A stretch of DNA of 64,000 nucleotides from an uncultured Bacilli bacterium. Lineage in GTDB: Bacteria > Bacillota_I > Bacilli_A > RF39 > UBA660. Under the pieces are notes generated by a model. The model worked only from the letters and a program-made list of their open reading frames with translations, searched no databases and had not been told where the DNA came from. Positions 44,141 through 61,621 of this stretch are shown here, piece after piece; the stretch's first letter is position 1, and every line of letters starts with the position of its first letter. The stretch lies in contig CANPYM010000001.1 in the NCBI GenBank assembly GCA_947588685.1, positions 479-64,478 of the forward strand, given 5' to 3'. The position numbers and the translations under genes were made by a program.

Positions 44141-44154
44141 AGGAGGAAGAAAAT

Positions 44155-47658: not shown

Positions 47659-49404
47659 CTATTTTTCATCATCCCACTCACCGACATCTTCAAACAAATC
47701 TATTTCCGGGAATATATTGTTGCCATTATGATCTATCAATTGAACTGTTCCTTTATCTTTATCTTTCAAAATATACGCTGGAACTAATTCATCATTAATA
47801 CATAGCATTCCAATAAAATTAGCATATCCATCAGTTAAAGCCATCATATATTGTGATCTCGTTTCACTACCTGACAAGCTATCACTCTTTAAAGCTAAAT
47901 CAGTAACTACAAACTCAACTGTAATTTCACTATCTTCTGGCAATTCTATATCTAATTTTCCATCAAAAACAAATGAATTTCCTTCTGTAGAACACGAAAC
48001 ATTTTTATAATCGCTATATTCACCACCATTTAACTTATAATGGTATTTCATACTTAATACATTGTTTTTAATGCCAAAATTGTCATTCCAAAAGGATCCA
48101 CTACATTTTAAATTAACCTCTTTAGATGTTGCTTCTGTTCTTTCTACAATTACAGTAGTTATAACAGGTACTTTATAACTCAAATATTTATAATCACTAT
48201 CGTCGTTAATTGACAATTTTTTAGTTTGAACTTCTGTACATGCCCCTCTTGTATCCCTCAAAAGAAATCCAAAATTGACTATATCCTCATTTATAGAATT
48301 ATATAATTTGTTATCAGCCTTTTCAATTAATCGTACATTATTAAGTTCATATAGATATTCATAAACTTGTGCATCATCAAATAAATTAACATTATAAAAA
48401 GAAGCCTTTATTTGGGAGACATTTCTTATAAAAACATCAGCAGAACCAGTTAATTCTTTTGATAGATTATCAGCTACTTCTAATTTTGAATCAAAAGTTA
48501 TAGATGATTTTGTCCTAGAACAATACCAATCATAAGTTTTAGAATCAGTACCTAAAAGTGTACCGTTCGCATCATAAGTAGATAACTTATAAGTTATTGG
48601 TATTTTACCTTGAATATCTTTTGAAATGTCATAAAACTCAATTTCTTTGGATAACATCTCTTCAAGAGTTAATGGAAAGTCTAAATTAACATATTCACTT
48701 ATACTAGGTTTCGTTTTATCAAAAACAACATTAATTCCTTTGTTAATAGAAAAATTATCAGCTATTATTCCACTTAATAATTTTCCAGATTTATCAGAAA
48801 AAGAATACTCTAATTTATGTTTAAAGGTCGTTGTTGCACACGTTATTTCTAAAGTTTCATACGATGGATAAGCATTGTTAGATATATTGACTAAATTTCC
48901 ACTATTAATCACACTAGCTCGAGGAATCTTAGTTAAAGCCGTATTAGAGGTTTGAACAGTAGCTGACTCCGGAACATATGAGGCACTTGTATTTTTGGTC
49001 CACATTACCTTTGCATAGCCACTTAAAGTTCCGTCATCTTTATGGATTACAGTAACTTCTTTAGTTAAAGAAGAAGATGCCCCAGTATTTAAGCTTTTAA
49101 CTGTCTTTGTTCCTAAAAGTTTGTCGCTATTGGTATTATCATCATGCCAATAGATTTTTAGCGTTGGAGCATACGTTGAATAAGACCCTGTTCCGGATTT
49201 TATCGTTCCTGTTACACTAATTGTAGATGTATTATTTGGAATTGATGTACTCTTTTCATTAAAAGAAACTGATAAATTGAAAGTTCCCAAACCTCTAATG
49301 GTTTTGCTTGCTGAATTAGATGCAGCCATTAAAACATAACCATCTATTTTAGATAATCTCTCAGCATTGATAAAACTTGTTTTTATATTATTCAAGAGTA
49401 TCAT
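47659..49404 (-). CDS. tail fibre/receptor-binding structural protein (581 aa)
   Basis: Beta-rich and S/T/N-rich, in the position of distal tail genes. The N-terminal third resembles DUF859-type phage structural proteins (HxDDG-like loop: IHKDDGTLSG). The start may be the TTG at 49395 (GGAGGA 9 nt upstream). Confidence 0.65.
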   Translation of the reverse strand: MILLNNIKTSFINAERLSKIDGYVLMAASNSASKTIRGLGTFNLSVSFNEKSTSIPNNTSTISVTGTIKSGTGSYSTYAPTLKIYWHDDNTNSDKLLGTKTVKSLNTGASSSLTKEVTVIHKDDGTLSGYAKVMWTKNTSASYVPESATVQTSNTALTKIPRASVINSGNLVNISNNAYPSYETLEITCATTTFKHKLEYSFSDKSGKLLSGIIADNFSINKGINVVFDKTKPSISEYVNLDFPLTLEEMLSKEIEFYDISKDIQGKIPITYKLSTYDANGTLLGTDSKTYDWYCSRTKSSITFDSKLEVADNLSKELTGSADVFIRNVSQIKASFYNVNLFDDAQVYEYLYELNNVRLIEKADNKLYNSINEDIVNFGFLLRDTRGACTEVQTKKLSINDDSDYKYLSYKVPVITTVIVERTEATSKEVNLKCSGSFWNDNFGIKNNVLSMKYHYKLNGGEYSDYKNVSCSTEGNSFVFDGKLDIELPEDSEITVEFVVTDLALKSDSLSGSETRSQYMMALTDGYANFIGMLCINDELVPAYILKDKDKGTVQLIDHNGNNIFPEIDLFEDVGEWDDEK

Positions 49405-50440
49405 CCTCCAAATCTTCTAGTTTTTGAATTAACTGTTTTAAATTAAAGAAGCCAACACCATCTTTTTCCCCTTCAAAATGTTTTGATGTCATTTTTATTG
49501 GTTTCATTTTTAAACTTTGAAGCTGAATACTTTCTACAGCAATTAATTTATCAACACCTGTTCCATTATGATTAAAGATTGATTGAAGCTTCTGTCTATT
49601 GTAGATTTTGACTCCTCGATTATTCATTCTTAAACTAACCAAATCGGTAGAATCAACAATTGTGAACTCCCGGGTACCAAAGGTATATGTCATATTTCGG
49701 ACGCTTTCAATTGTAGATTGTTGCAATTCGTCTATTCTTTTGATTGTTTCTTCAAAATTAAGTTTAAATTGATCAACACCTTCAACAATTGATAAAACTT
49801 GACCTTTTAAAACTTCTAATTGATCACCAACCTTTTGGGCTAAAGAATCATCTGTATAACTTAAAGCATCGATAAAATCTCCGTCTTCATATTCTTCATC
49901 AACTGTTTTTGATATTTGACATGCATACAATAGTCCGTCATTAATCCACAAATCACCATTGTCATATGGTGGATATGGTTCTTCTAAAAAAACACGTCTC
50001 TTATTATCAGCTGCATCTTTAGCAGCATTAGCAGTTGATAAAGCATCCTTTAAGTCTTTATCTTTTATTTCCAGCCATTCATAAATATTATTTTCTTTAT
50101 TAAAAGTAAAGGTATAACAATATCCTGTTTCCCGATCATAAAAGAGATCTCCAATATGAGATCTCTTTTCTTCATCGGTATTCCAATTAACCGAAGGTTC
50201 AGTTGTTAAACTTGGCTTATAATTATAATACCAAATATCAACCTTTTCATTTATATCTGCTTCAAACTCTTTTAAAGTACTTAAAGTTGATTTTATAAAA
50301 TTATTTAAATCAGCTTTAGTATCATTGATAGCTGCAACATTTCCTTTTATTTCATTAAGAAGTTTTTCTAATTTGTATTTTCGTTCCAGGTCTTGAGCCG
50401 TTCTGACTCCAGGTATATCTTGTCGTTGCAATTTTACCAC
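49388..50440 (-). CDS. tail fibre/structural protein (350 aa)
   Basis: N-terminal coiled coil, then repeated W...GDL(F/W) motifs (HIGDLFYD, NGDLWIND) common in phage fibre shafts. The likely start is the TTG at 50431 (GAGGTGG 6 nt upstream). Confidence 0.65.
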   Translation of the reverse strand: MVKLQRQDIPGVRTAQDLERKYKLEKLLNEIKGNVAAINDTKADLNNFIKSTLSTLKEFEADINEKVDIWYYNYKPSLTTEPSVNWNTDEEKRSHIGDLFYDRETGYCYTFTFNKENNIYEWLEIKDKDLKDALSTANAAKDAADNKRRVFLEEPYPPYDNGDLWINDGLLYACQISKTVDEEYEDGDFIDALSYTDDSLAQKVGDQLEVLKGQVLSIVEGVDQFKLNFEETIKRIDELQQSTIESVRNMTYTFGTREFTIVDSTDLVSLRMNNRGVKIYNRQKLQSIFNHNGTGVDKLIAVESIQLQSLKMKPIKMTSKHFEGEKDGVGFFNLKQLIQKLEDLEDDTLE

Positions 50441-53400
50441 CTCACAGTTCCATTAGAGCTAACTTTCATACCTAATTCTTCAAGAATAGTTTTGATATCA
50501 TCATATGGCAAATTTTTATTATTTAAATAATTAACTATTTCAGAATTATATGTGTCATCGCTTGGATATTCCATCTTATAAAGCATTATTTTTTGTTCAT
50601 AAGTTAAATCCAAACCATTTATATAATTAATTATTTTATTTTTTCTAGATCCATTAATGGTTTTGCCATTCGCATATTTATCAGATTTGATATTATTTAA
50701 GTTGTTAGTATATTCTCTATATAAAACAGTATCTTCGGTAACCAATTTAGACATTTGGTATTGCTTTTGGTTATTATATGCCCAATCATAAGCACTTTTA
50801 CTATCCTCGGAAGAAGAATAATCTTTATAAGAAATATTATTCTTCGTTAAAAAATCATATTTTTCTGTATTTTTATTATAAAAATCAAATTCTTCATAAT
50901 TAGCAAATTGTTCATAATTATCTAATTCAATTCGATCACTAACTTTTTTCATGGTTTTTAATTTTGATGCATCAACCACATTATATTTTGAATCATAAAG
51001 AATCTTTCTGTTTTCATCATAATAATATGTTTTATTGACTTGCTTACCTTTTGAGTTAAGCTCTTTATTAATATATTTTGTATATCCATATTGATCCGTA
51101 TTGTTTTTAGATGTAACATTATTAAACATAATTTCTTTTTTATCTGTAGGAAGATTCAAACTTGTTATATAATCAAAAGCTTGCTCTAAAGAATTAGCCT
51201 TTTTTAAATAATTAATTGGAATATTAATTTCGTTATAATTGTTATCATAAACAATTGAATTAGATTTGTCATACCAATAAACATTTCCATCAAAATCAGT
51301 ATATTTTTCATAATTATTCTCATCTTTAGTAGCTTTAGCTTTCTTTAACTCATCCTGATAATCCCAATACTCTTGAATTGGTAAACCTAGTTCTTTATAT
51401 TCAGCTGTTTGTTTATCGTTTAGTGGAGCACGACCTTGATCAAAATAATCTCTAGCATTGCTACTTGCATACTGACCAAATAGAGCTGCTTGAACACGGT
51501 TTTGAGGAATATCTTCCACTGGGAACCTTAATTTTCCACCATCAGTGTAAGATCCTTTTACTGGAAGATCTTCATCAAACATTCCTAATCCTTTTTTTAT
51601 TTTGTTAAGCTGATTGTATCCGGATGGCATTATATAATATGGCAAAGCTTCTTTTAAAATATCTAAACGACTCTCTTCATTTCCGTATTGATCTTTGCCT
51701 TGGACCAACTCTACTATTGGAAGCGCCTCGCTAATAGGTATACGGCCACCACCAGTTAAGATACTTGCAAAAGGCAGTTGATCAATTAAATCACCCATAG
51801 CTTCTTCAGCACGTTCTGTCATACTTTTATCCTTGTCATCATCATCTGGCCAAAAAATCTTTTTTAACATTTCAATTGGATTAAACATTACAGATGATCC
51901 AGTCAATTTTTTAAAAAATTCATCAAAGAAAAATGAAGCAGCTACTAATTGACCTAATTGGAATATGACAGATTTAGCTGTTCTATTTCCACTTTGAATA
52001 TCCATTTTATAATCATGGATTAAAGCTTGCCATTGATTATTTACCTCTAATTGAAATTGAGAAAAAACACCTAAAGTTTTGGAATTAAAGATAGCAGCTG
52101 TTGCACCTTTAGTTCTATCACCCATAATCCTTGAGGCAAAGTCATCTGCTTGTTTTATTGCAACATCTTCGGATAAATTATCACCTAATAATTCATAATA
52201 TTTGCTTCGCCAGATCACATTTGATGTAAAAGTATCGGTAGCTGTCATGAAACATTGACCTGCACTTGATATCTTTTGCCATGTCTTTTTTGATATAGTA
52301 TCGCTTCCGGCTCTTGATGTTAAAAAGACTGATTTATCAGCCAAATTATCTTGATGAACAATGTTTTTTAATTCTGATATTGTTCCTTGAATAACAGCTA
52401 ACTTCTTAACCTTTGGCATCGCTTGAACTACAGAAACAAAGTTTGTTAAAGCACTTCTAACATTAAAACCAACCATATTGCTTCCAACTTGAGATTTTAT
52501 AGCGTTAAGACAATTGTAAACTCTTCGTCCAGCAGCTTCTTCAAGACCACGATCAATCTTACCTTTTTTGCCAGCAAGAGCATTAGCTTGTTCATCTAAC
52601 CATGCTGCATATCTACTTAATTTATGATTTTTCATATCCTGGATTCGCTGTTCTTGTTCATAATCATTTAGCTGATATGCATTATCCATTCCATGCTGTT
52701 CGCCGAATGTGTCACGGACTAATTTAGCTAAAGTCCTATATCTTTGAATATCTTCTGTATGGAAAATTAAATTAGATGAACTTTGAATATATCCATCGAT
52801 TCCGGTTATTGCGTCATAAGTTGTATTAATTCCTTTTCTGGCAACAGCACTTGCAAAAAAACTTTTTCCAGGTTTAAATTGATCTGTTATTCCATTTATA
52901 TCAGTAGGTAACAAATCATCGTTTAAGTTTTGTCTACTAAAAGGAACACCAAAGCGGCTAAATATATCATTTAATTCGTTAAAGTGTCTCATATAGTCTT
53001 TTCTTTTAGGAATAGCATCATATCCCATATCAACTAAAACTTCATTAATGTCATCTATATATGTGTCATATTTAGATCTTATAACTCTTGCTGCATTCTT
53101 AATTTTATCTTGAGTTTTTATATCTGGAAATTCTCGAGCTAATTCTTTATCACCATAATTTATATATTCGCCAAAGTCATTGACATACTTCTTTTCACCA
53201 TACTTTTGGACAGCAGCCGATTCTTTACTTCTAGCTTTAATACCTAAATCCATAATCTCGGCACGTTCTCTATTTTGCCATCTAATTGATTCAGCCTCAT
53301 TATATTTTGTCCTATTAATAGTAGCGTCATTTATCTTTTGACCAATCTCATAGCCAAAGACTTTTTCATTTAATCTAATTGGATCTGTTATAAATGAATT

Positions 53401-56400
53401 AACTGCTGAAATATCGTCGCCTTTTGAAATATCTTCCACAGTTAATCCCATCTTTTCCAATAATTCTTCTCTAATGACTTCCCTTGTTCTTTTTTCGGCC
53501 TTTTGATCTAATTCGTTTTGAAGTTTTCTAATTTCTACTTCATTTAACGAATTTTTTTGAATAAGATTAAAAACTTTATCTCGTGCTTGCCTTAATTCAT
53601 AATTTGATAATCTAAACTTATGTGTAACAGTATCATTACTATTCATAAAGTCACCTAATGCATATAATTGATCTACTTCATTAATAATATTTTTATTAAA
53701 TAAATAAGGATATTCTTCGCTCAATTCCTGCCACAATGAATCTATTGATAAACCTTCATTACCTAGCTTTAATTTACCAAAATTAGACTTTCTAAACTCA
53801 TTATAATCAGTTATTTGATTTTTTAAATTGTCATCAACTTTAATTTTAGAAGCCTTTATTTCTTTTTTAATTGCCAATGTTTGAGAATCAACAAAGTCAA
53901 TCTCTCGATTGGCATATTTATCTACAATTTTCTCGATTTCTCGGTATGTATCTACATTTACTAATTGTTCGGCCGTCTTACCCATAAAGCGTCTCAAATC
54001 GTCTCTAAATGACTTTTTTTCAGCATTAGAAAAGCCAACATATTCGTTGGCAGCTTTAGTGGCAGCATTTATACCTTTATAAGTTCCTTGAGCAATTGCC
54101 CTTTTAATCTTTTCTTCTACCTTTTTGCGACGCTTTTCTAATGGCGAATAATAATTTGTATATTTTTCATTATTATTCTCATTAGAATTAGATTTATTAT
54201 TATCTTTTGCTACGTATTCTAGTAATTCCTCTATTTCAGTATTTCCTTCTTGAACTTTGACATCATCGCCAAAAACATTAAAATTACCTACGGGTGCAAT
54301 ATCATCATTGTTATTTGATAAAGAATAATTAATATTTTCATCTGATGAAAGATCTATATTTTCTTCTAATATTGGTAAGATATTATCTTTCCAATTAGCA
54401 TAATCTTTATCGCTGAAGATATGATTATATGACTCATTGTATGTCATATCAAAATCGTCAACATATCCATTATCATGATTGGCTATTCTAAACTCAGTAT
54501 TACCTTCAGCATCTTTGATATAAATACTAGGAACATATCCAGCCTCTTTACTTTTGCTAATTTCATAATTGATATTATGTTTATCTAAATAATTTAACAG
54601 TTCATTATATCCCTTTACAGCTAATTCTTGCCGATCAAAAAAGGTTTTATCTTGACCTTCATCATATCTTGGAGATATTCCTTCCTTTTCTAATATTTCA
54701 TTTATTTGACTATATACATCATCATAAACTTGTTGATTATGAGTCTCCACTTCTTCTTCAGTCATATTTATTTCATCTAAATCAACATCGGATAAATCAA
54801 TATAATTTTCTTCTGAATATGGTGAATATGCAATAATGTCATCTATTTCTTGATAAGTTATTTGATCAACATCCATATCTCTAATTAAACGATTAGTTTC
54901 AATTTCAATATAGTCTTTTTGTTTTTTGCTATTTAAATCTTCATATCTTTTTGTTTCTGAACCAAAATTTGATAAAGAAAGAGATGTATTATCTACATCT
55001 CTTGACAGATTTTTCTTACTTGATTGAATAAAGCTTTTTTCTGAAATGTTTTTGGATTGATAGTCTTCAAGTATTGAATCAATGTATTCTGTCCACGATT
55101 GTTCCCCTTCAACTGAAGCATTATTCCAATTATCGAATTCATATCTAAATTCAGTTCTTTCAATATTCGTATTAATGTTCGTTCTAAAGGCGTCAACATT
55201 TTTTCCCTCCTCAATTATATTTTTTATAAAGTCCTCGTTCCCTAATATTGGGATTTTAGATAAAATTTGATAATTATTATCAGCTGTTTTTAAAACCTCA
55301 TAGTAATTATTGTAATCATTTAAAAACAAATTTTCATCTACACCAATTTTAGCTTTACTTATCATCTGATTAAATAAGACAGAGGATTTATACTCATCTA
55401 AATTTCTATCTTTATTATACTCTATACCAGTGGTATTTACAACTTTAGCATATTGTCCTTGTGTTGGATCTATCCATGCTACATCATTAATTGATACTTC
55501 TTTTGAGTAAACTTTACCATTCCCTGCGTAACTTTCTGCCTCCATTCTAGATGGTGAAACAAATATACCTTGTTCTATTGGGTAAGATGAATATACTATT
55601 ATTAATCCATTTTCAATGGCTTTCTCTATATCTTTCTTTGTTAAATCAGGATCATAAGCGTCATAATCAGCCCAATCGTCATCTTCAATAGTTTCTTGAA
55701 GTGTTTTTATATCTTCAATATTCCTAATCCAAGTAACTGTTTCATTTCCTGCTGGATTATTTTTTAATATGATGTCAAGCTGTTTTTCCTTTAAAGTATT
55801 AGAAGGAAAAGAACTATCATCTAATTTTTGATTGTTTAGTGAATACTTTATATTATCTTGCATATTACTATTATTGGATAATGTACTAGATTTGACATTA
55901 TTGTTAGATTGTGATATATTATCTTCTACAGAGGAACCATGGGTTGATTCGTCAACCATAATAGATAAGCTATTTTTATCTATCGTGGCTCCTCTTTTTT
56001 CGTTAATATTATCAATATCATACGCATAATTACCATCTGATTCTTTTCTAACAACCATTCTTCCTTCAAATACGCTATAATCTTCTATCAAACCATTATT
56101 GTTTTTTAATGGGTATGCAAGTAACACATTATAATAGTCGAAACCTTTTCTTCCTCTATGCGTATTTTTATAATTTGATTTTCCAGATTTTAAAGGATCT
56201 ATTTTAGCTAGTTCTAAAATTTCTCCATAATTTCCTGAAATTCTATATTTTAAACGTCTTGATTTGTAATTGTTATAACCATCATACATAAACTTTTTTA
56301 TATCATTGTTTGTAACTTGTAAATAATCATTACTTGACATATTTTTTACTTTTTGTCCTATTAATTTTGTTAAAACTAATTTCACATCTTTTTTTGATGG

Positions 56401-58710
56401 TCTAGAGCCAAGTAAATCATCAGATATAACAACGTCTTCTCCAGATATCAATTTACCTTTTGAAAACTTAAGCTTTTTTTCTTGCTTAGAAATATCACTA
56501 TTTTGATATATATCCCTAAACTTCTTTTGAATCTCTCTTAATTTTTTCTCATCGTCTGTTCCTTTAAACTTAATAACTAAGTCATCTATTAAGTCTTTTA
56601 TTTTTGTAAATAAATTAGGTTTCTTAGATAGACTTTCAATCAATTTTTCGTCGGTAAACATGTAGTCGCCTACTAAATCGGCAGCTAATTCATTTTCTAT
56701 ATTAGTACCATCAATTCCTTTATATAATTCCTTTATTTGATCTAATCTAGAATCATAATCACCTTTTTGCTTTGCATAATCAAATAACATATCGCGAAGA
56801 TCTTTAGATTCTGCTGTATTTTCAAATAAATGATTTGTTTCATGTCCTAATATTACATTTAGGGCTTTTTTTGAATCTGTGTTTATTAAAATTGTCGTTT
56901 TTCCATCTTCATTAGTTCTCACAAAGCCATTTATTTCAGCATTTTCTACATTATGGCCTAATTTTTTTAATTCTTCTGAATTAGTAAAGCCATACTTAAT
57001 ATTTTCTTTGTTTAAATTAGACGCTATATCAACAATTTTTCTTGAATCAGATGTATTATTCATAAACTGTGCGGCCGTTTTTCTTGTAAATTGTTCATTC
57101 TCATCTTTTATTTTAGTCTCATCATATTCATATTTTTTATTTTTTTGGTTAGCCTCATAATAACTTTTTTGAAGAAATTGATCTTTAGATGCTGAATCAT
57201 TTATTAATTTAGCTTGTTGCACCCTTAATTTATCAATTTTAGACTGTATATCGGCTTTCTCTTCTTTGGTAGTAGTATTTTCCATTTGTTCCTGTAAAGT
57301 TTTAATTTGGGCTGTTGATGATGGTGATAGAGCCTGTTCTATGTCTCCAATATCTACCTTTCCAGATTTTATTTGTTCATTTACTTCTTTTTTGATTGAA
57401 CTTAATTCTTTTTTTGATAGATCAGACATATATGCTTCAATATCGCCATTATTAAAGTCATTTTCAACCTGTTTTCGTATTGCTTCTTTTTCGGTTGCAT
57501 TTAATTTTGAGCCTTGGTTATATTCAGCTTTTTCTATCCTATCGTCAACTATTGATTCAATAGTTTTTTTGTTCATTAATTCTTTTCTTCTTTTTTCGGT
57601 TAATGATTCCATTACTTTTCTTTCATTTTCAGAAAAACCATCAACATAATCAACATTAGCTTTTGTGGATTTTACTAATGAAGGAGCTGATGAAATACCT
57701 GAAGCAATAGCGCCATCAATAAATTGATCTAAAAGTTTTTCATCATTTAAAATGTCTCTTAAATCTTTATCCGACATGTAAGTCAATTTTTTGCCAAGTC
57801 CTTGACAAAATCCTGATACAACTTCCTCTAATCCTTCGCCACTAGCTTTGATGGCATATTCCGAGAAATTCTTCATTAAACGGCTTTTAAATCTATTGCT
57901 AACAGCACTAGCTATTTGATCATCAAAACCACCAATACCTTTAGAAAGTCCTAATGCATTTGTTCCTTTTCCTAAACCACCAAACATCATTTCAGAGCCA
58001 GCTTCAGCAAGACCACTTATTATCCCATATTTTAATGCTTCGCCATTTGTAGCACCATTCTCATAAGCTTCAGTCATTCCATTTCCCATCGCTGTGGAAA
58101 AGGTTGTTCCTGTTATGGTAGCATCTACCACTTTATCAGATCCTACTTTAGCTTTAGTAACTCCGCCTATTGCTTGTAATCCATATATATATCCTAAAGT
58201 TTGGATTAATCCATCTGATCGGTCGGTTGTTACAGACCACTCTTCAAAAGCATCAGGAGTTTTCCAAATCTTTTCAGCTTGATTCTCCATTGCACTTTCT
58301 CTTAAATCATTAGGATCTATATAATCTTTAAAAAGGCCAGTTTTTTCAAGAAGATTAGCTTGACCATATGCAATCATATCTCCGAAGCTTTCACCAATAC
58401 CCCAAATACCTTTAGTAAATTCAGTAGCAGCTTTTCCAGCTGTTCCTATAATTGTTTTAGGAATATCTGTCCAATCAAATCCATCTTCAAAGGCTCCTTT
58501 ATCAATAAAACTGCCAAGAAAATCGAAAGTTTCACCTAATGGATTAGTCAAAAACTTTTCCCAACCAGATTTTTTTTCTTGATTTTGATTAGCTTGTTGT
58601 TCTGCAAGTTGAGCTATTTGGTCTTGTAGCTGTTGCTGTTGTTCTTGTTGTAATTGTTCCTCGGTTTTTTTCTCTTCCCATTTCCTTGTTTTTGGATTGT
58701 ATTTATACAT
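50434..58710 (-). CDS. giant virion/ejection protein (2758 aa), polyvalent-protein-like, with zincin HExxH module
   Basis: Single uninterrupted ORF with an AAGGTGA SD. Q-rich N-terminal coiled coil, then a Gly/Ala-rich hydrophobic region. HETNH at residues 623-627 (56830-56844) with a downstream ELAADL. A nuclease/LPD-like block at about residues 760-900 (GFDYYNV...YAYDIDNINEKR). The C-terminal half has hydrophobic helices and YYYD/YWYD repeats. Confidence 0.8.
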   Translation of the reverse strand: MYKYNPKTRKWEEKKTEEQLQQEQQQQLQDQIAQLAEQQANQNQEKKSGWEKFLTNPLGETFDFLGSFIDKGAFEDGFDWTDIPKTIIGTAGKAATEFTKGIWGIGESFGDMIAYGQANLLEKTGLFKDYIDPNDLRESAMENQAEKIWKTPDAFEEWSVTTDRSDGLIQTLGYIYGLQAIGGVTKAKVGSDKVVDATITGTTFSTAMGNGMTEAYENGATNGEALKYGIISGLAEAGSEMMFGGLGKGTNALGLSKGIGGFDDQIASAVSNRFKSRLMKNFSEYAIKASGEGLEEVVSGFCQGLGKKLTYMSDKDLRDILNDEKLLDQFIDGAIASGISSAPSLVKSTKANVDYVDGFSENERKVMESLTEKRRKELMNKKTIESIVDDRIEKAEYNQGSKLNATEKEAIRKQVENDFNNGDIEAYMSDLSKKELSSIKKEVNEQIKSGKVDIGDIEQALSPSSTAQIKTLQEQMENTTTKEEKADIQSKIDKLRVQQAKLINDSASKDQFLQKSYYEANQKNKKYEYDETKIKDENEQFTRKTAAQFMNNTSDSRKIVDIASNLNKENIKYGFTNSEELKKLGHNVENAEINGFVRTNEDGKTTILINTDSKKALNVILGHETNHLFENTAESKDLRDMLFDYAKQKGDYDSRLDQIKELYKGIDGTNIENELAADLVGDYMFTDEKLIESLSKKPNLFTKIKDLIDDLVIKFKGTDDEKKLREIQKKFRDIYQNSDISKQEKKLKFSKGKLISGEDVVISDDLLGSRPSKKDVKLVLTKLIGQKVKNMSSNDYLQVTNNDIKKFMYDGYNNYKSRRLKYRISGNYGEILELAKIDPLKSGKSNYKNTHRGRKGFDYYNVLLAYPLKNNNGLIEDYSVFEGRMVVRKESDGNYAYDIDNINEKRGATIDKNSLSIMVDESTHGSSVEDNISQSNNNVKSSTLSNNSNMQDNIKYSLNNQKLDDSSFPSNTLKEKQLDIILKNNPAGNETVTWIRNIEDIKTLQETIEDDDWADYDAYDPDLTKKDIEKAIENGLIIVYSSYPIEQGIFVSPSRMEAESYAGNGKVYSKEVSINDVAWIDPTQGQYAKVVNTTGIEYNKDRNLDEYKSSVLFNQMISKAKIGVDENLFLNDYNNYYEVLKTADNNYQILSKIPILGNEDFIKNIIEEGKNVDAFRTNINTNIERTEFRYEFDNWNNASVEGEQSWTEYIDSILEDYQSKNISEKSFIQSSKKNLSRDVDNTSLSLSNFGSETKRYEDLNSKKQKDYIEIETNRLIRDMDVDQITYQEIDDIIAYSPYSEENYIDLSDVDLDEINMTEEEVETHNQQVYDDVYSQINEILEKEGISPRYDEGQDKTFFDRQELAVKGYNELLNYLDKHNINYEISKSKEAGYVPSIYIKDAEGNTEFRIANHDNGYVDDFDMTYNESYNHIFSDKDYANWKDNILPILEENIDLSSDENINYSLSNNNDDIAPVGNFNVFGDDVKVQEGNTEIEELLEYVAKDNNKSNSNENNNEKYTNYYSPLEKRRKKVEEKIKRAIAQGTYKGINAATKAANEYVGFSNAEKKSFRDDLRRFMGKTAEQLVNVDTYREIEKIVDKYANREIDFVDSQTLAIKKEIKASKIKVDDNLKNQITDYNEFRKSNFGKLKLGNEGLSIDSLWQELSEEYPYLFNKNIINEVDQLYALGDFMNSNDTVTHKFRLSNYELRQARDKVFNLIQKNSLNEVEIRKLQNELDQKAEKRTREVIREELLEKMGLTVEDISKGDDISAVNSFITDPIRLNEKVFGYEIGQKINDATINRTKYNEAESIRWQNRERAEIMDLGIKARSKESAAVQKYGEKKYVNDFGEYINYGDKELAREFPDIKTQDKIKNAARVIRSKYDTYIDDINEVLVDMGYDAIPKRKDYMRHFNELNDIFSRFGVPFSRQNLNDDLLPTDINGITDQFKPGKSFFASAVARKGINTTYDAITGIDGYIQSSSNLIFHTEDIQRYRTLAKLVRDTFGEQHGMDNAYQLNDYEQEQRIQDMKNHKLSRYAAWLDEQANALAGKKGKIDRGLEEAAGRRVYNCLNAIKSQVGSNMVGFNVRSALTNFVSVVQAMPKVKKLAVIQGTISELKNIVHQDNLADKSVFLTSRAGSDTISKKTWQKISSAGQCFMTATDTFTSNVIWRSKYYELLGDNLSEDVAIKQADDFASRIMGDRTKGATAAIFNSKTLGVFSQFQLEVNNQWQALIHDYKMDIQSGNRTAKSVIFQLGQLVAASFFFDEFFKKLTGSSVMFNPIEMLKKIFWPDDDDKDKSMTERAEEAMGDLIDQLPFASILTGGGRIPISEALPIVELVQGKDQYGNEESRLDILKEALPYYIMPSGYNQLNKIKKGLGMFDEDLPVKGSYTDGGKLRFPVEDIPQNRVQAALFGQYASSNARDYFDQGRAPLNDKQTAEYKELGLPIQEYWDYQDELKKAKATKDENNYEKYTDFDGNVYWYDKSNSIVYDNNYNEINIPINYLKKANSLEQAFDYITSLNLPTDKKEIMFNNVTSKNNTDQYGYTKYINKELNSKGKQVNKTYYYDENRKILYDSKYNVVDASKLKTMKKVSDRIELDNYEQFANYEEFDFYNKNTEKYDFLTKNNISYKDYSSSEDSKSAYDWAYNNQKQYQMSKLVTEDTVLYREYTNNLNNIKSDKYANGKTINGSRKNKIINYINGLDLTYEQKIMLYKMEYPSDDTYNSEIVNYLNNKNLPYDDIKTILEELGMKVSSNGTVRW

Positions 58711-58722
58711 AAGATCACCTTC

Positions 58723-59910
58723 TTATTTTAACTTTTTCAATTTCTGTAAAACTGAACTATTTACTGGTGCAGGTATTTTTTCATATGTCATCTTTGAACC
58801 ATTCCATATCCAGTAAGTGCCATCAGATGTATAGAAAACATTTTGACCAGATACATTAACACCGGAGCTATTTTTAAAATTAGAATTATTTGTCCACTCA
58901 CTAACTTTTATACCTGTTTTAGAAACTGCTCCATAAACCTTACCATTATAAATAACTCCTTTAGGTTGATAAGTTTTACCATTTTTATCTACTGTATTGT
59001 TGAAGGCTCCAAATCTTTCAAGTGCAACAAGAGTTGTTTCTGGAATATCTCCATGATAATAATCTGTATCTATACGATATCCACTTGACGAACTAGAGCT
59101 TATTTTAGATGCTGCTTTTTGAGCTGCGATGCTAGCGTTTGTGCTTTTCTTCTGAAGATTATATTCTTTTTGCCACTGTTGATCTGCTATCTTATCACGA
59201 GCTTTTTGATATTCCATTTGAGCTTCGAATTGTCGAATTTGTTCTTTTAAACTATTTTCTTGATTTTGTTGATTAAGAACATCTTGCCATCTTGAATAAT
59301 ATCGATCATCTATTGATTGCTGTTGTTGCAACTGTTCTCTTAATAAATCGTTCTTATACTGGAATCCTTGTAAAGATAATTCTAACTGTTGCTGTAATGC
59401 TTGATAATAAATATCAGCTAAAGCTGAATTATTAGCTAATTGTGCATCTTTAATTCCATTATCATAATTAAGTACAATTTGATTAAAGCTTTCCCTAGCT
59501 GTTGAAACTCTATTTTGATAAGTATTCCACATACTTACATTGCTAAATTCACTAAAACCTGTATTAGCTAATCCATTAGCTGCCATTTGTTCAGCTTGAG
59601 CTCCATATTGATTACTTTGTTTTTGCCAATCAACATATGCTCCAGATTGTTCTTTTAAATAATCTTTATGAGCTTGTTCTTTCTGTTGGTTTAATTGGTC
59701 TATCAAATGATCTGTTTTTTCTTGCTGAAGTTCACTTTGCTTGTCAGCATAATCTTTTGATGCCTGGATTTGTTTATCATAAAACTCTTGACTTTGATTT
59801 ACCATATCACCGTACATATCGTTCATGCTATCAAGAGCATTTTGCTTTTCTGTTTCAACATCTTTAAAACGTTGATCTTCATAATTTATAGAATAATTAG
59901 GTGCTGCCAT
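58723..59910 (-). CDS. coiled-coil structural protein with C-terminal globular domain (needle/plug-like by position)
   Basis: 395 aa with a GGAGGG SD. About 260 residues of Q/E/K-rich coiled coil, a poly-Ser linker (SSSSSG), and a beta-rich C-terminal domain of about 110 aa. Confidence 0.65.
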   Translation of the reverse strand: MAAPNYSINYEDQRFKDVETEKQNALDSMNDMYGDMVNQSQEFYDKQIQASKDYADKQSELQQEKTDHLIDQLNQQKEQAHKDYLKEQSGAYVDWQKQSNQYGAQAEQMAANGLANTGFSEFSNVSMWNTYQNRVSTARESFNQIVLNYDNGIKDAQLANNSALADIYYQALQQQLELSLQGFQYKNDLLREQLQQQQSIDDRYYSRWQDVLNQQNQENSLKEQIRQFEAQMEYQKARDKIADQQWQKEYNLQKKSTNASIAAQKAASKISSSSSSGYRIDTDYYHGDIPETTLVALERFGAFNNTVDKNGKTYQPKGVIYNGKVYGAVSKTGIKVSEWTNNSNFKNSSGVNVSGQNVFYTSDGTYWIWNGSKMTYEKIPAPVNSSVLQKLKKLK

Positions 59911-59920
59911 ATATTCCCTC

Positions 59921-61621
59921 CTATCGTTTTATATATCCACCAATATAGGCTTCTAATGTTCCCGAATAAAACTTAAAAGGTTTTGTAGATTCAATTTTTA
60001 ATTGAATTGCTTTCCACTTTTTCATTTTTATACGGCAAACTACATATCGTTTTGTATATTCAAAATCGATGTCTTCATAATCATTGTCATCAGTCCTTGC
60101 TGATACTTTTAAATCTTTGCCTTCTAAATCTAAGACGCATCCACGCTTATTAGTTGTTTTTTGATACTGTGGATATCCAAATTCATCTTCAGCAGTTAAC
60201 CAATAACTTTCAATTTCTCTTTCTTCACTATTATCTGTTAATTTATAAATGCCATCTTCCGTACCTAAATAAAGAATGCCATCTTTTACTTTTGTACAAA
60301 TGATATTTTTTTCTAAAGTCCAAAAAAACCATTCATATTCATAATGGTTTTCTTTTTGAAACATTGAATTGCTATTTGCAAGATATATTTTATTATCAAT
60401 GATAACTAATAAATATCCTTTCCATTCTTCAAGAATCATCTCGCGATACTTTTCTTCAGCTAGGATTTTTGAGTCAATTAATGTACTTCTGTGCGCTAAT
60501 ACTTGTTCACTCGTTATATCACCATTAATTGCTTCCATTCCACGATCAGAAAAGAATACTATATCGTCATTAAAATTAATTCCTGTAGCTATACATCCAA
60601 TCGATATACTTGAGTGGGAACTAGGATAAATCTTTCCATATTCTGCATCCACAACCGGATTATGATAAAAAACAGTTGTATTTGCTTGTGATGGCTCTTT
60701 TAAAACCCATAATGCATTATTCCCAGGAATCATCGCTTTAACAGGCGACATATCTAATCCTTCATTATAATAATCTAAATCGCTGCAATAAGATGGATCC
60801 TCTAAACTTGTATGCCAAATTGTATTTGGATAATTAGGGTTTCCACTAAAGAAAACACGATTATCAAAAACAGCTAATAGATTGCATCTTTTGATTCTAT
60901 CAGCATAACCCGAAACTGTCTTTTTAAAAGTAATAAAAACATTATCTTGTCCGTCCGTTAAAGGTGGCTGAGGTGCCTCAGTAAAAATAATTTTCCCTTG
61001 AGTAGTGTCATATTCATAATCAGTTGGATATTCTAATAACTCATCATTAACTATTATGATAGGACATTCACCATCAATATTCGTTGCATCAAGATAATAA
61101 TCTTTGCTTTCGCCATCTGCTAAAAAGCTATTCTTTCGCCATGGGGATAACATGTTTATATCTTCATAGATACTGCCACCACCAGCTGGCTTTCTTCCAA
61201 TCGATGTCGCTGGAATATAGCCAACTACATCACCGATAATCTCCCCATCATATCTTAAATAATTTATTCCGTCTTTGATATATAAAACATTATTAAAAAT
61301 AAATGATTGGCTTCTTGCAGGTTTCATACCTTCATATAAGATAGTTCTTTCGCCATTTACTATTTTATATAATTTTGTTCCACAATGAACAATCATCATA
61401 TCAACATCATTTTTCTTATAAAAAAAGAGTCCAAATATAGAATTGTCGAAATCTTCGACTTTTTCCATACCTGGACGTGTTTCAATACAATTTCCAGATT
61501 CTTCATAATTTTTCCATACATTTAAAGCATCTGGACTACGATAGCTGGCTACTTCAGGATCAGAAAAATCAACTCCTACAAAATTAGCATAAACTTTTGA
61601 AATTAAACTTCCACTTACCAT
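59921..61621 (-). CDS. tail hub/stabilisation-like structural protein (566 aa)
   Basis: Beta-rich with repeated blade-like segments. Its ATG overlaps the upstream stop (ATGGTAA). Size and position match a P22 gp10-type protein (inference). Confidence 0.55.
   Translation of the reverse strand: MVSGSLISKVYANFVGVDFSDPEVASYRSPDALNVWKNYEESGNCIETRPGMEKVEDFDNSIFGLFFYKKNDVDMMIVHCGTKLYKIVNGERTILYEGMKPARSQSFIFNNVLYIKDGINYLRYDGEIIGDVVGYIPATSIGRKPAGGGSIYEDINMLSPWRKNSFLADGESKDYYLDATNIDGECPIIIVNDELLEYPTDYEYDTTQGKIIFTEAPQPPLTDGQDNVFITFKKTVSGYADRIKRCNLLAVFDNRVFFSGNPNYPNTIWHTSLEDPSYCSDLDYYNEGLDMSPVKAMIPGNNALWVLKEPSQANTTVFYHNPVVDAEYGKIYPSSHSSISIGCIATGINFNDDIVFFSDRGMEAINGDITSEQVLAHRSTLIDSKILAEEKYREMILEEWKGYLLVIIDNKIYLANSNSMFQKENHYEYEWFFWTLEKNIICTKVKDGILYLGTEDGIYKLTDNSEEREIESYWLTAEDEFGYPQYQKTTNKRGCVLDLEGKDLKVSARTDDNDYEDIDFEYTKRYVVCRIKMKKWKAIQLKIESTKPFKFYSGTLEAYIGGYIKR

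Follow-up and report, generated by a model that had tools for sequence, protein, structure and literature searches.

A giant modular protein of a gut Firmicute prophage, probably a cargo-carrying internal virion protein of a temperate podovirus

The window analysed here is a stretch of 64,000 nucleotides (nt) from an uncultured Bacilli bacterium, corresponding to positions 479-64478 of contig C1 (CANPYM010000001.1) in an assembly of 1.16 Mb and 30 contigs. It contains a gene for a protein of 2758 amino acids (aa), hereafter the giant, which is likely to be a cargo-carrying internal virion protein (IVP), or ejection protein, of a temperate podovirus residing in a small-genome gut Firmicute. The sequence comparisons presented below make it a probable functional counterpart of gp16 of phage T7 (the IVP-D family) and, by way of the protein Bbp10 of the Bordetella phage BPP-1, a probable distant homologue. 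A preliminary description of this DNA had proposed a polyvalent and probably injected effector carrier, built on an ejection-protein scaffold in a podovirus-type phage and equipped with a zincin metallopeptidase. This proposal is supported: homologues of the giant carry polyvalent-protein (PolyVal) Pfam domains in a variable region, a zincin-like HExxH motif with its downstream glutamate is conserved, and the core is homologous to Bbp10.

Results

A single gene with conserved ends and a variable middle

The giant is encoded on the minus strand by one open reading frame (ORF), from an ATG at 58710 to a TAA at 50434. The sequence GAAGGTGA, a good ribosome-binding site, lies 6 nt upstream of the ATG and 12 nt downstream of the stop codon of p395, a 395-aa gene, and the giant's own stop overlaps the GTG start of the 350-aa gene p350, in the tight packing of a late operon. 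An open frame of 8.3 kb could not have come about by chance in DNA of 30% G+C; the ORF is real, and the single ORF of the preliminary description is borne out by its start, stop, ribosome-binding site and operon packing. The sequence landmarks quoted there were also all found, namely the Q-rich N-terminus, a Gly/Ala-rich stretch (residues ~160-262), HETNH as the sole HExxH of the protein (623-627) with ELAADLVG beginning downstream at E674, YAYDIDNINEKR at 895, IIVYSSYP at 1037, SPSRMEAESYAG at 1052, and two YxYD hairpin repeats between about 2480 and 2620. The "hydrophobic helices" ascribed to the C-terminal half were overstated, in that a single segment (2244-2266) exceeds a Kyte-Doolittle value of 1.2.

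Searched as a whole, the protein has no match in Pfam or PHROGs and nothing significant among PDB sequences. Comparison by BLAST with 120 homologues (2000-3100 aa, metagenomic, mostly on contigs of 20-40 kb) splits it into five regions: residues ~200-750 are conserved at ~30% identity, 750-1450 are variable, 1450-2470 are strongly conserved (~55%), 2470-2627 are again variable and 2628-2748 conserved. Among close relatives the core is 46-60% identical. At least six blocks (the N-terminal block, the zincin, 745-945, 945-1092, 1096-1250 and the core) are distributed independently among relatives; the N-terminal block, for example, is also found without the zincin in the relatives L023, L024 and L058. 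A search that started from a distant member with 38% core identity recovered another 120 giants with the same end-pieces, and the variable middles of these proteins contain PF18760 (ART-PolyVal), PF18814, PF18812, LPD3 (PF18798), LPD23, PF18819, GNAT and AAA_33, among others. Homologues taken together also have PF18838, PBECR and LysM in this region. Domains of the ART-PolyVal and LPD types are the signature of polyvalent proteins (Iyer et al. 2017, PMC5512222). The coordinates of all features are collected in Table 1.

The C-terminal core is related to internal virion protein D

The core is what defines the family, which is very large: clustering at 50% identity gives 2982 clusters when E <= 1e-3 is required and 1747 at E <= 1e-30. 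In nearly all cases the core forms the C-terminal part of a protein of 1500-3500 aa, and distant relatives of ~1000 aa consist of the core alone. In core-only phages (L063, L066) the gene order is capsid, tubular-tail-A-like (phrog_394), tubular-tail-B-like (phrog_376), a 132-aa gene, a 586-aa gene, the core and a T7-gp17-like fibre; the core therefore occupies the slot of T7 gp16. The order is analogous in the prophage of the window, where the giant follows tail genes and precedes fibre-like genes.

An AlphaFold model of the core (residues 1451-2650; 50 alignment rows) has a mean predicted local distance difference test score (pLDDT) of 71 and a predicted template modelling score of 0.53, and DSSP assigns nearly all of it to helix up to about residue 2380. 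A comparison of the model with BFVD gave 59 matches (E <= 1e-3) to the C-terminal parts of giant proteins from viruses. The names of these matches include ART-PolyVal, LPD3, MuF_C, nuclease, DNA methylase and "crystallin beta/gamma motif-containing protein", the last being the name given to Bbp10. When a 36-row profile of the core was compared with Bbp10 by hhalign, the probability was 90.5% with E 1.4e-6 over 186 columns (giant residues 2033-2235, Bbp10 residues 1688-1896), and HMMER gave 25 bits; with reversed and locally shuffled Bbp10 as controls hhalign returned at most 0.4%. Bbp10 has been listed as a homologue of IVP-D (the T7 gp16 family) by Hardies et al. 2016 (PMC4819975), who also describe IVPs as hosts of domains destined for the cytoplasm. 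On the basis of this one bridge, of gene position and of helical character, the core is best read as an ejection body of the IVP-D type.

An identity of the giant as an N4-like virion RNA polymerase was considered and rejected: hhalign, HMMER and BLAST all found no similarity of N4 gp50 to the N-terminal, zincin or C-terminal regions. Searches of NCBIfam with the core, the N-terminal part and the core-only relatives yielded nothing. One distant core-only relative (L066:8573-11758, plus strand, 1061 aa) matches phrog_2206, "virion RNA polymerase", through an N-terminal part of its own (aa 281-536; profile positions 341-569 of 3406, E 4e-8) that is not present in the protein of the window. From its sequence, this match may be a further link of IVP-D-type carriers to the N-terminal region of N4-like gp50.

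A conserved zincin-like block lies upstream of the cargo

The HETNH of the giant is invariant in 51 of 51 non-redundant close homologues. In 27 diverse zincin blocks from viral contigs the HExxH and N610 are likewise invariant, and E674 and D678 (ExxxD) are conserved to at least 90%. An HExxH followed by ExxxD is the gluzincin arrangement, as in thermolysin and neprilysin. An AlphaFold model from a 44-row alignment places residues 359-709 at pLDDT 85-97 and predicts strands at 571-576, 595-599 and 605-610, followed by helices at 617-627, which includes H623-E624-x-x-H627, and at 671-684, which includes E674-x-x-x-D678. In columns 710-960 of alignment A4 there is no homologue coverage, and the model there is a single-sequence one of low confidence. 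The order strand-strand-strand-helix-helix is the metallopeptidase (MPTase) topology according to Iyer et al. (PMC5512222). From the motif, its conservation and the modelled topology it is very likely that the block has a genuine metallopeptidase fold. A profile of the block matches 358 of the 442 sampled family proteins; it is missing from some giants and from all core-only relatives.

No zincin family was found by Pfam in 44 fragments of relatives that cover the N-terminal block and modules, one of which matches Peptidase_M91 with E 0.008, and the zincin profile found nothing among PDB sequences. The preliminary description had suggested fold searches; these were carried out with Foldseek against the PDB on both AlphaFold models. 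The core model had no match beyond helical noise, and the whole 1041-residue model that contains the zincin also gave noise only; the multi-domain nature of the models probably masked matches of small domains. As relatives of the zincin, the MPTase region of N4 gp50 and the HExxH region of Bbp10 were both tried and rejected, with no match.

A junction peptide accompanies the zincin

The string YSLS, seen at block boundaries in consensus lines, prompted a search for a junction peptide. In 393 giants, [YF]SL[SNKQT] occurs 647 times compared with 134 times in shuffled sequences, an enrichment of about 5-fold; the wider context is [DN]x[KRQ][YF]SLS[DEN], and we write the peptide [DN]x[KRQ][YF]S[LIM]S. 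The giant bears two copies, KYSLN at 956, at the edge of a mobile module, and NYSLS at 1462, at the boundary of cargo and core. In relatives there are one to five copies, 130-500 residues apart and all between zincin and core, and in 126 of 170 members a copy lies no more than 40 residues from the N-terminal edge of the core. Since 48 non-redundant occurrences represent 43 different 15-mers, with serine codons of both the TCN and the AGY families at both positions, conservation acts on the peptide and not on a microhomology of the DNA. Directly after the zincin block of the giant is the sequence KKLKFSKGK; its KKLKFS (residues 745-750, window 56470-56487, minus strand) may, to judge from its sequence, be a degenerate third junction peptide at the boundary of zincin and cargo.

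The peptide co-occurs with the zincin. Members with a zincin contain 2.05 motifs per protein and 87% have at least one, while those without contain 0.28, with 19% having at least one, which is near chance. A comparison of length-matched proteins gave 1.92 motifs with the zincin and 0.33 without it. The state of the zincin changes at least 37 times on the core tree, and among uniform clades of giants the motif is present in 42 of 60 with a zincin and in 9 of 33 without (odds ratio 6.2, Fisher P 9e-5). As a sequence pattern, this co-occurrence suggests a protease with its cleavage sites. Such a role has been proposed for MPTases in general terms by Iyer et al. (PMC5512222), who do not describe a peptide between modules. 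We put forward tentatively that the giant processes itself at the junction peptide, and with the same reserve that zincin and peptide together might form a built-in "cut here" system, with cleavage between every cargo module.

An ejection protein could also contain an HExxH that does not act on the protein itself, because it has host targets or is dead, and the peptide would then be a structural linker or a signal for packaging or unfolding. N4 gp50, which has an MPTase, is packaged unprocessed (as cited in PMC5512222), and the motif is missing in 18 of the 60 zincin-bearing clades and present in the 9 zincin-less ones noted above. Set against this are the enrichment of the motif, its location at module boundaries, its conservation at the level of protein only, the manner in which it tracks the zincin across the gains and losses on the core tree, and the invariance of the catalytic residues. 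We consider a zincin without a role in self-processing rather unlikely.

Mobile cargo between zincin and core

When the giant was searched against Pfam in pieces of 450 aa, the sole match was to LPD3, below threshold (18-21 bits, best 20.6; cut-off 27). The block in question had been described as a nuclease or LPD module; the LPD part of this assignment persists at that sub-threshold level, and nothing indicates a nuclease. The block 745-945 is common to only two relatives, at 60% identity, and the LPD3-like block showed no link to the copies annotated as LPD3 in relatives. The module 945-1092 is found in 49 sampled relatives with up to 72% identity, compared with 30-55% in its flanks. Because the identity of the module exceeds that of the flanks, we regard it as a shuffled cassette. 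Its profile matches nothing in Pfam or the PDB. The preliminary description had seen here a degenerate ADP-ribosyltransferase (ART)-like block. What we find is a well-folded mobile module without an ART match, and an ART of the R-S-E type was rejected: the candidate ExE stretch, MEAESY, varies to NQARDY, AQAQMY and MEAGSY and is predicted to be helical. Residues 1260-1450 consist of acidic and N-rich linkers around a small block at ~1290-1400. Beyond the core, the variable insert at ~2470-2627, which separates it from the C-terminal domain, contains the YxYD beta-hairpin repeats …NVYWYDKSNSIVYDNNYN… and …KTYYYDENRKILYDSKYN…. These are modelled at pLDDT ~80-89 and by eye resemble cell-wall-binding hairpin repeats, with no family match.

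The prophage and its podovirus relatives

The giant is a late-operon gene of a prophage of ~37 kb, which extends from near window position 44150 to ~17 kb past the window and has a large serine recombinase (serine integrase) at its far end. In the order of transcription there are regulators including a repressor, terminase (600 aa), portal (580 aa), a 113-aa Peptidase_M78-like gene, scaffold and major capsid protein (MCP), then p122, p195, p566, p395, the giant, p350 and a 581-aa tail protein, and finally two small receptor-binding-like (fibre-like) genes and a GH25 endolysin. The cultured Bacillus megaterium podophage Page has homologues of portal, p195 and p566 in its gp4, gp12 and gp15, of which gp4 is annotated as a "podovirus-type" portal, and the portal of the closest sister prophage bears the Pfam P22_portal domain. 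An alignment-based search found relatives on 74 viral contigs of 36-46 kb, whereas a single-protein query had found none, and the order portal-scaffold-MCP-p122-p195-p566-p395-giant-p350 is retained in dozens of them. Among 61 related genomes the gene of the giant occurs in one, that of the window itself, as expected for a mobile prophage.

Great length, a high helix content and a position 3' of the head genes are what one would also see in the tape measure protein of a long-tailed phage. Among the prophage genes there is no tail tube, sheath, frameshifted chaperone pair or tape-measure gene; searches of Pfam, PHROGs and NCBIfam gave no match to a tape-measure family; the structural genes have their relatives in podoviruses; and the length of family members shifts by gain and loss of cargo around a constant core, from ~1000 aa (core only) to ~3500 aa. 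We therefore consider a tape measure highly improbable. The preliminary description had named a tape-measure assignment and a non-conserved HExxH as outcomes that would speak against it; the searches made no such assignment, and the HExxH is conserved among homologues.

Downstream of the giant and translationally coupled to it, p350 keeps its place in 35 of the 74 related viral loci and matches internal segments of phrog_21973 ("tail protein", 3605 aa), phrog_16381 and phrog_38044, all of them giant families. This means that other phages have the p350 domain within a giant protein. Profiles of p122, p195, p566, p395, p350 and p581 compared with tail and internal virion proteins of T7, BPP-1 and N4 all gave at most 4%, the neighbouring proteins had nothing significant among PDB sequences, and p395 and p350 had nothing in NCBIfam.

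The setting of the giant among tail genes, the matches of p350 to pieces of giant PHROGs labelled "tail protein", the LysM of some relatives and YxYD repeats that could bind the cell wall would all suit an external tail structural protein, i.e. a spike, hub or wall-degrading "tail lysin" that stays on the particle and uses its modules for adsorption or wall penetration. This we find improbable, since the core consists almost wholly of helices, as internal virion proteins do, and is homologous to Bbp10, an IVP-D homologue. Further, the cargo of relatives (ART, RNase-like PBECR, GNAT, kinase) targets the cytoplasm, and core-only relatives sit in the gp16 slot, 5' of a separate fibre gene.

Two side observations concern the structural module. 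A 113-aa gene with an HExxH of its own (HELMH) lies between portal and scaffold (L004:1460-1801, minus strand; C1:65460-65801, beyond the end of the window). It matches Pfam Peptidase_M78/IrrE-like with 23.9 bits (cut-off 22) and phrog_87, and it has no homologue among the 74 related viral loci. An ImmA/IrrE-type protease is oddly placed there; the gene occupies the usual slot of a prohead protease. In Page, gp20 (L081:19151-24190), a hypothetical protein of 1680 aa, likewise closes the structural module. It was rejected as a relative of the core, having no detectable similarity to the core family, and may represent a carrier that is analogous but comes from another lineage.

Table 1. Features of the giant protein and its flanking genes (window coordinates).
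Feature	Coordinates	Strand	Residues and remarks
Whole ORF, probable giant polyvalent internal virion (ejection) protein	50434..58710	minus	2758 aa
Q/E-rich N-terminal stretch	58570..58671	minus	~14-47; weakly conserved
Conserved N-terminal helical block	57253..58509	minus	~68-486; includes Gly/Ala-rich ~160-262
Zincin-like metallopeptidase block	56596..57078	minus	545-705
LPD3-like cargo segment	56146..56394	minus	773-855; sub-threshold PF18798
Junction peptide 1, DNIKYSLN	55834..55857	minus	952-959; N-edge of mobile module
Mobile cargo module, alpha/beta	55435..55878	minus	945-1092; pLDDT 84-97
Cargo module common to four relatives	54961..55425	minus	1096-1250; 36-40% identity
Orphan cargo/linker region	54361..54933	minus	1260-1450; no homologue in sampled family
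Junction peptide 2, ENINYSLS	54316..54339	minus	1458-1465; exactly at cargo/core boundary
Conserved, almost all-helical C-terminal core	51301..54315	minus	~1466-2470; most conserved 1735-2467
Core segment aligned with Bbp10 1688-1896	52006..52614	minus	2033-2235
Sole strongly hydrophobic segment	51913..51981	minus	2244-2266; kept in family consensus
Variable region with two beta-hairpin YxYD repeats	50830..51303	minus	~2470-2627
Conserved small helical C-terminal domain	50467..50829	minus	2628-2748
Upstream syntenic virion genes p566 (59921-61621) and p395 (58723-59910)	58723..61621	minus	p566 is homologue of Page gp15
Downstream syntenic p350	49388..50440	minus	start overlaps stop of giant; similar to internal parts of PHROG giants labelled "tail protein"

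Discussion

A cargo-carrying ejection protein

In the model that we favour, the core (~1466-2470) and the small domain 2628-2748 would get the protein packaged in the capsid, and upon infection the core would pass through the tail and help to build or traverse the conduit for DNA. The N-terminal block, the gluzincin-like metallopeptidase (623-627, E674xxxD678) and a string of exchangeable cargo modules (750-1460) would be additions in front of this core. The cargo would enter the cell together with the DNA and do its work within the first minutes of infection, where it might play an anti-defence role; in relatives it is predicted to comprise ADP-ribosyltransferases, RNase-like PBECR domains, acetyltransferases and similar activities. 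The zincin might then cut the polyprotein at or near the junction peptides and so free the cargo from an ejection body associated with the membrane. If these peptides do mark sites of cleavage, they would allow new cargo cassettes to slot in and yet stay releasable.

Several results weigh against this model or parts of it. Similarity of the core to T7 gp16 (hhalign 0.7%) and to N4 gp50 is not significant, and the same is true of homology to T7 gp15 and gp14. The link of the core to IVP-D rests for this reason on one bridging protein and 186 columns; the best segment of T7 gp16 (1245-1300), itself not significant, maps to those profile columns that also match Bbp10. The neighbouring proteins p195, p566, p395 and p350 are untied to tail or internal virion proteins of T7, BPP-1 or N4. 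No cargo module of the giant matches a recognised enzymatic family. The zincin block is recognised by neither Pfam nor PDB profile searches, so that the protease call rests on motif, conservation and predicted topology. Finally, the zincin-bearing clades that are without the motif count against self-processing, and the association of motif and zincin is confounded by cargo number and shared ancestry.

Relation to known systems

Among the closest known systems is Bbp10 (2052 aa), which like the giant is very large and mostly helical, is encoded in a temperate podovirus at the last of the internal-virion-protein positions, ahead of the fibre genes, and has one HExxH upstream of its core region. 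The similarity is detectable over only ~190 residues, at 22% identity, and the zincin blocks are not detectably related. BPP-1 has separate genes for IVP-B and for a transglycosylase (IVP-C-like), whereas here only p395 intervenes between p566 and the giant, and the hosts are Proteobacteria in the one case and Firmicutes in the other. T7 gp16 and N4 gp50 are each the largest ejected protein of their phage, encoded after tubular tail genes, as the giant would be, and gp50 moreover combines an MPTase, an enzyme destined for the cytoplasm (the virion RNA polymerase) and an IVP-D-like part. They differ in that there is no significant sequence or profile similarity and in that the giant is without a lytic transglycosylase or an RNA polymerase.

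With the polyvalent proteins of Iyer, Burroughs, Anand, de Souza and Aravind (2017, PMC5512222) the giant shares a combination of many unrelated modules in a single virion-encoded polypeptide and an HExxH-plus-glutamate peptidase as recurrent hub, and its relatives bear ART-PolyVal, PBECR, LPD3, LPD23 and MuF_C. Its gene lies among virion genes, between those for capsid and tail and those for fibres and lysis. A helical C-terminal carrier and a peptide between modules are not described in that paper, and the giant's zincin matches no Pfam model while its own cargo offers no more than the sub-threshold LPD3. The prophages phi1 and phi4 of Clostridium clostridioforme LM41 may be compared as well: they are temperate prophages of ~41 kb from a gut Firmicute, predicted to be podoviruses, with an 8-kb ORF that takes up ~20% of the genome and is noted as "LPD3-like", and the particles released spontaneously by LM41 were mostly podovirus-like by transmission electron microscopy (PMC11318856). 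The likeness to the giant is one of description; the paper offers no domain analysis.

Implications

In principle the design has been described before, as cytoplasm-destined domains in IVPs (Hardies 2016) and as phage polyvalent proteins in which a zincin serves as hub (Iyer 2017). At this locus both descriptions apply to a single family, very large and unnamed, of temperate podophages of gut Firmicutes; neither its carrier nor its protease is recognised by Pfam, PHROGs or NCBIfam. What is new is that the carrier core and the unannotated zincin block now have clear limits, usable for annotation, and that a junction peptide has been linked to the zincin, as a specific candidate for the release of cargo. 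The interval from zincin to core is a place to look for new anti-defence or host-takeover cargo. If the junction peptides are indeed sites at which the zincin cuts, polyvalent ejection proteins would possess a defined grammar, made up of a carrier, a protease and cassettes flanked by delimiters. It would then be possible to read off the repertoire of cargo in thousands of uncultured gut phages, and to test its delivery with a simple reporter.

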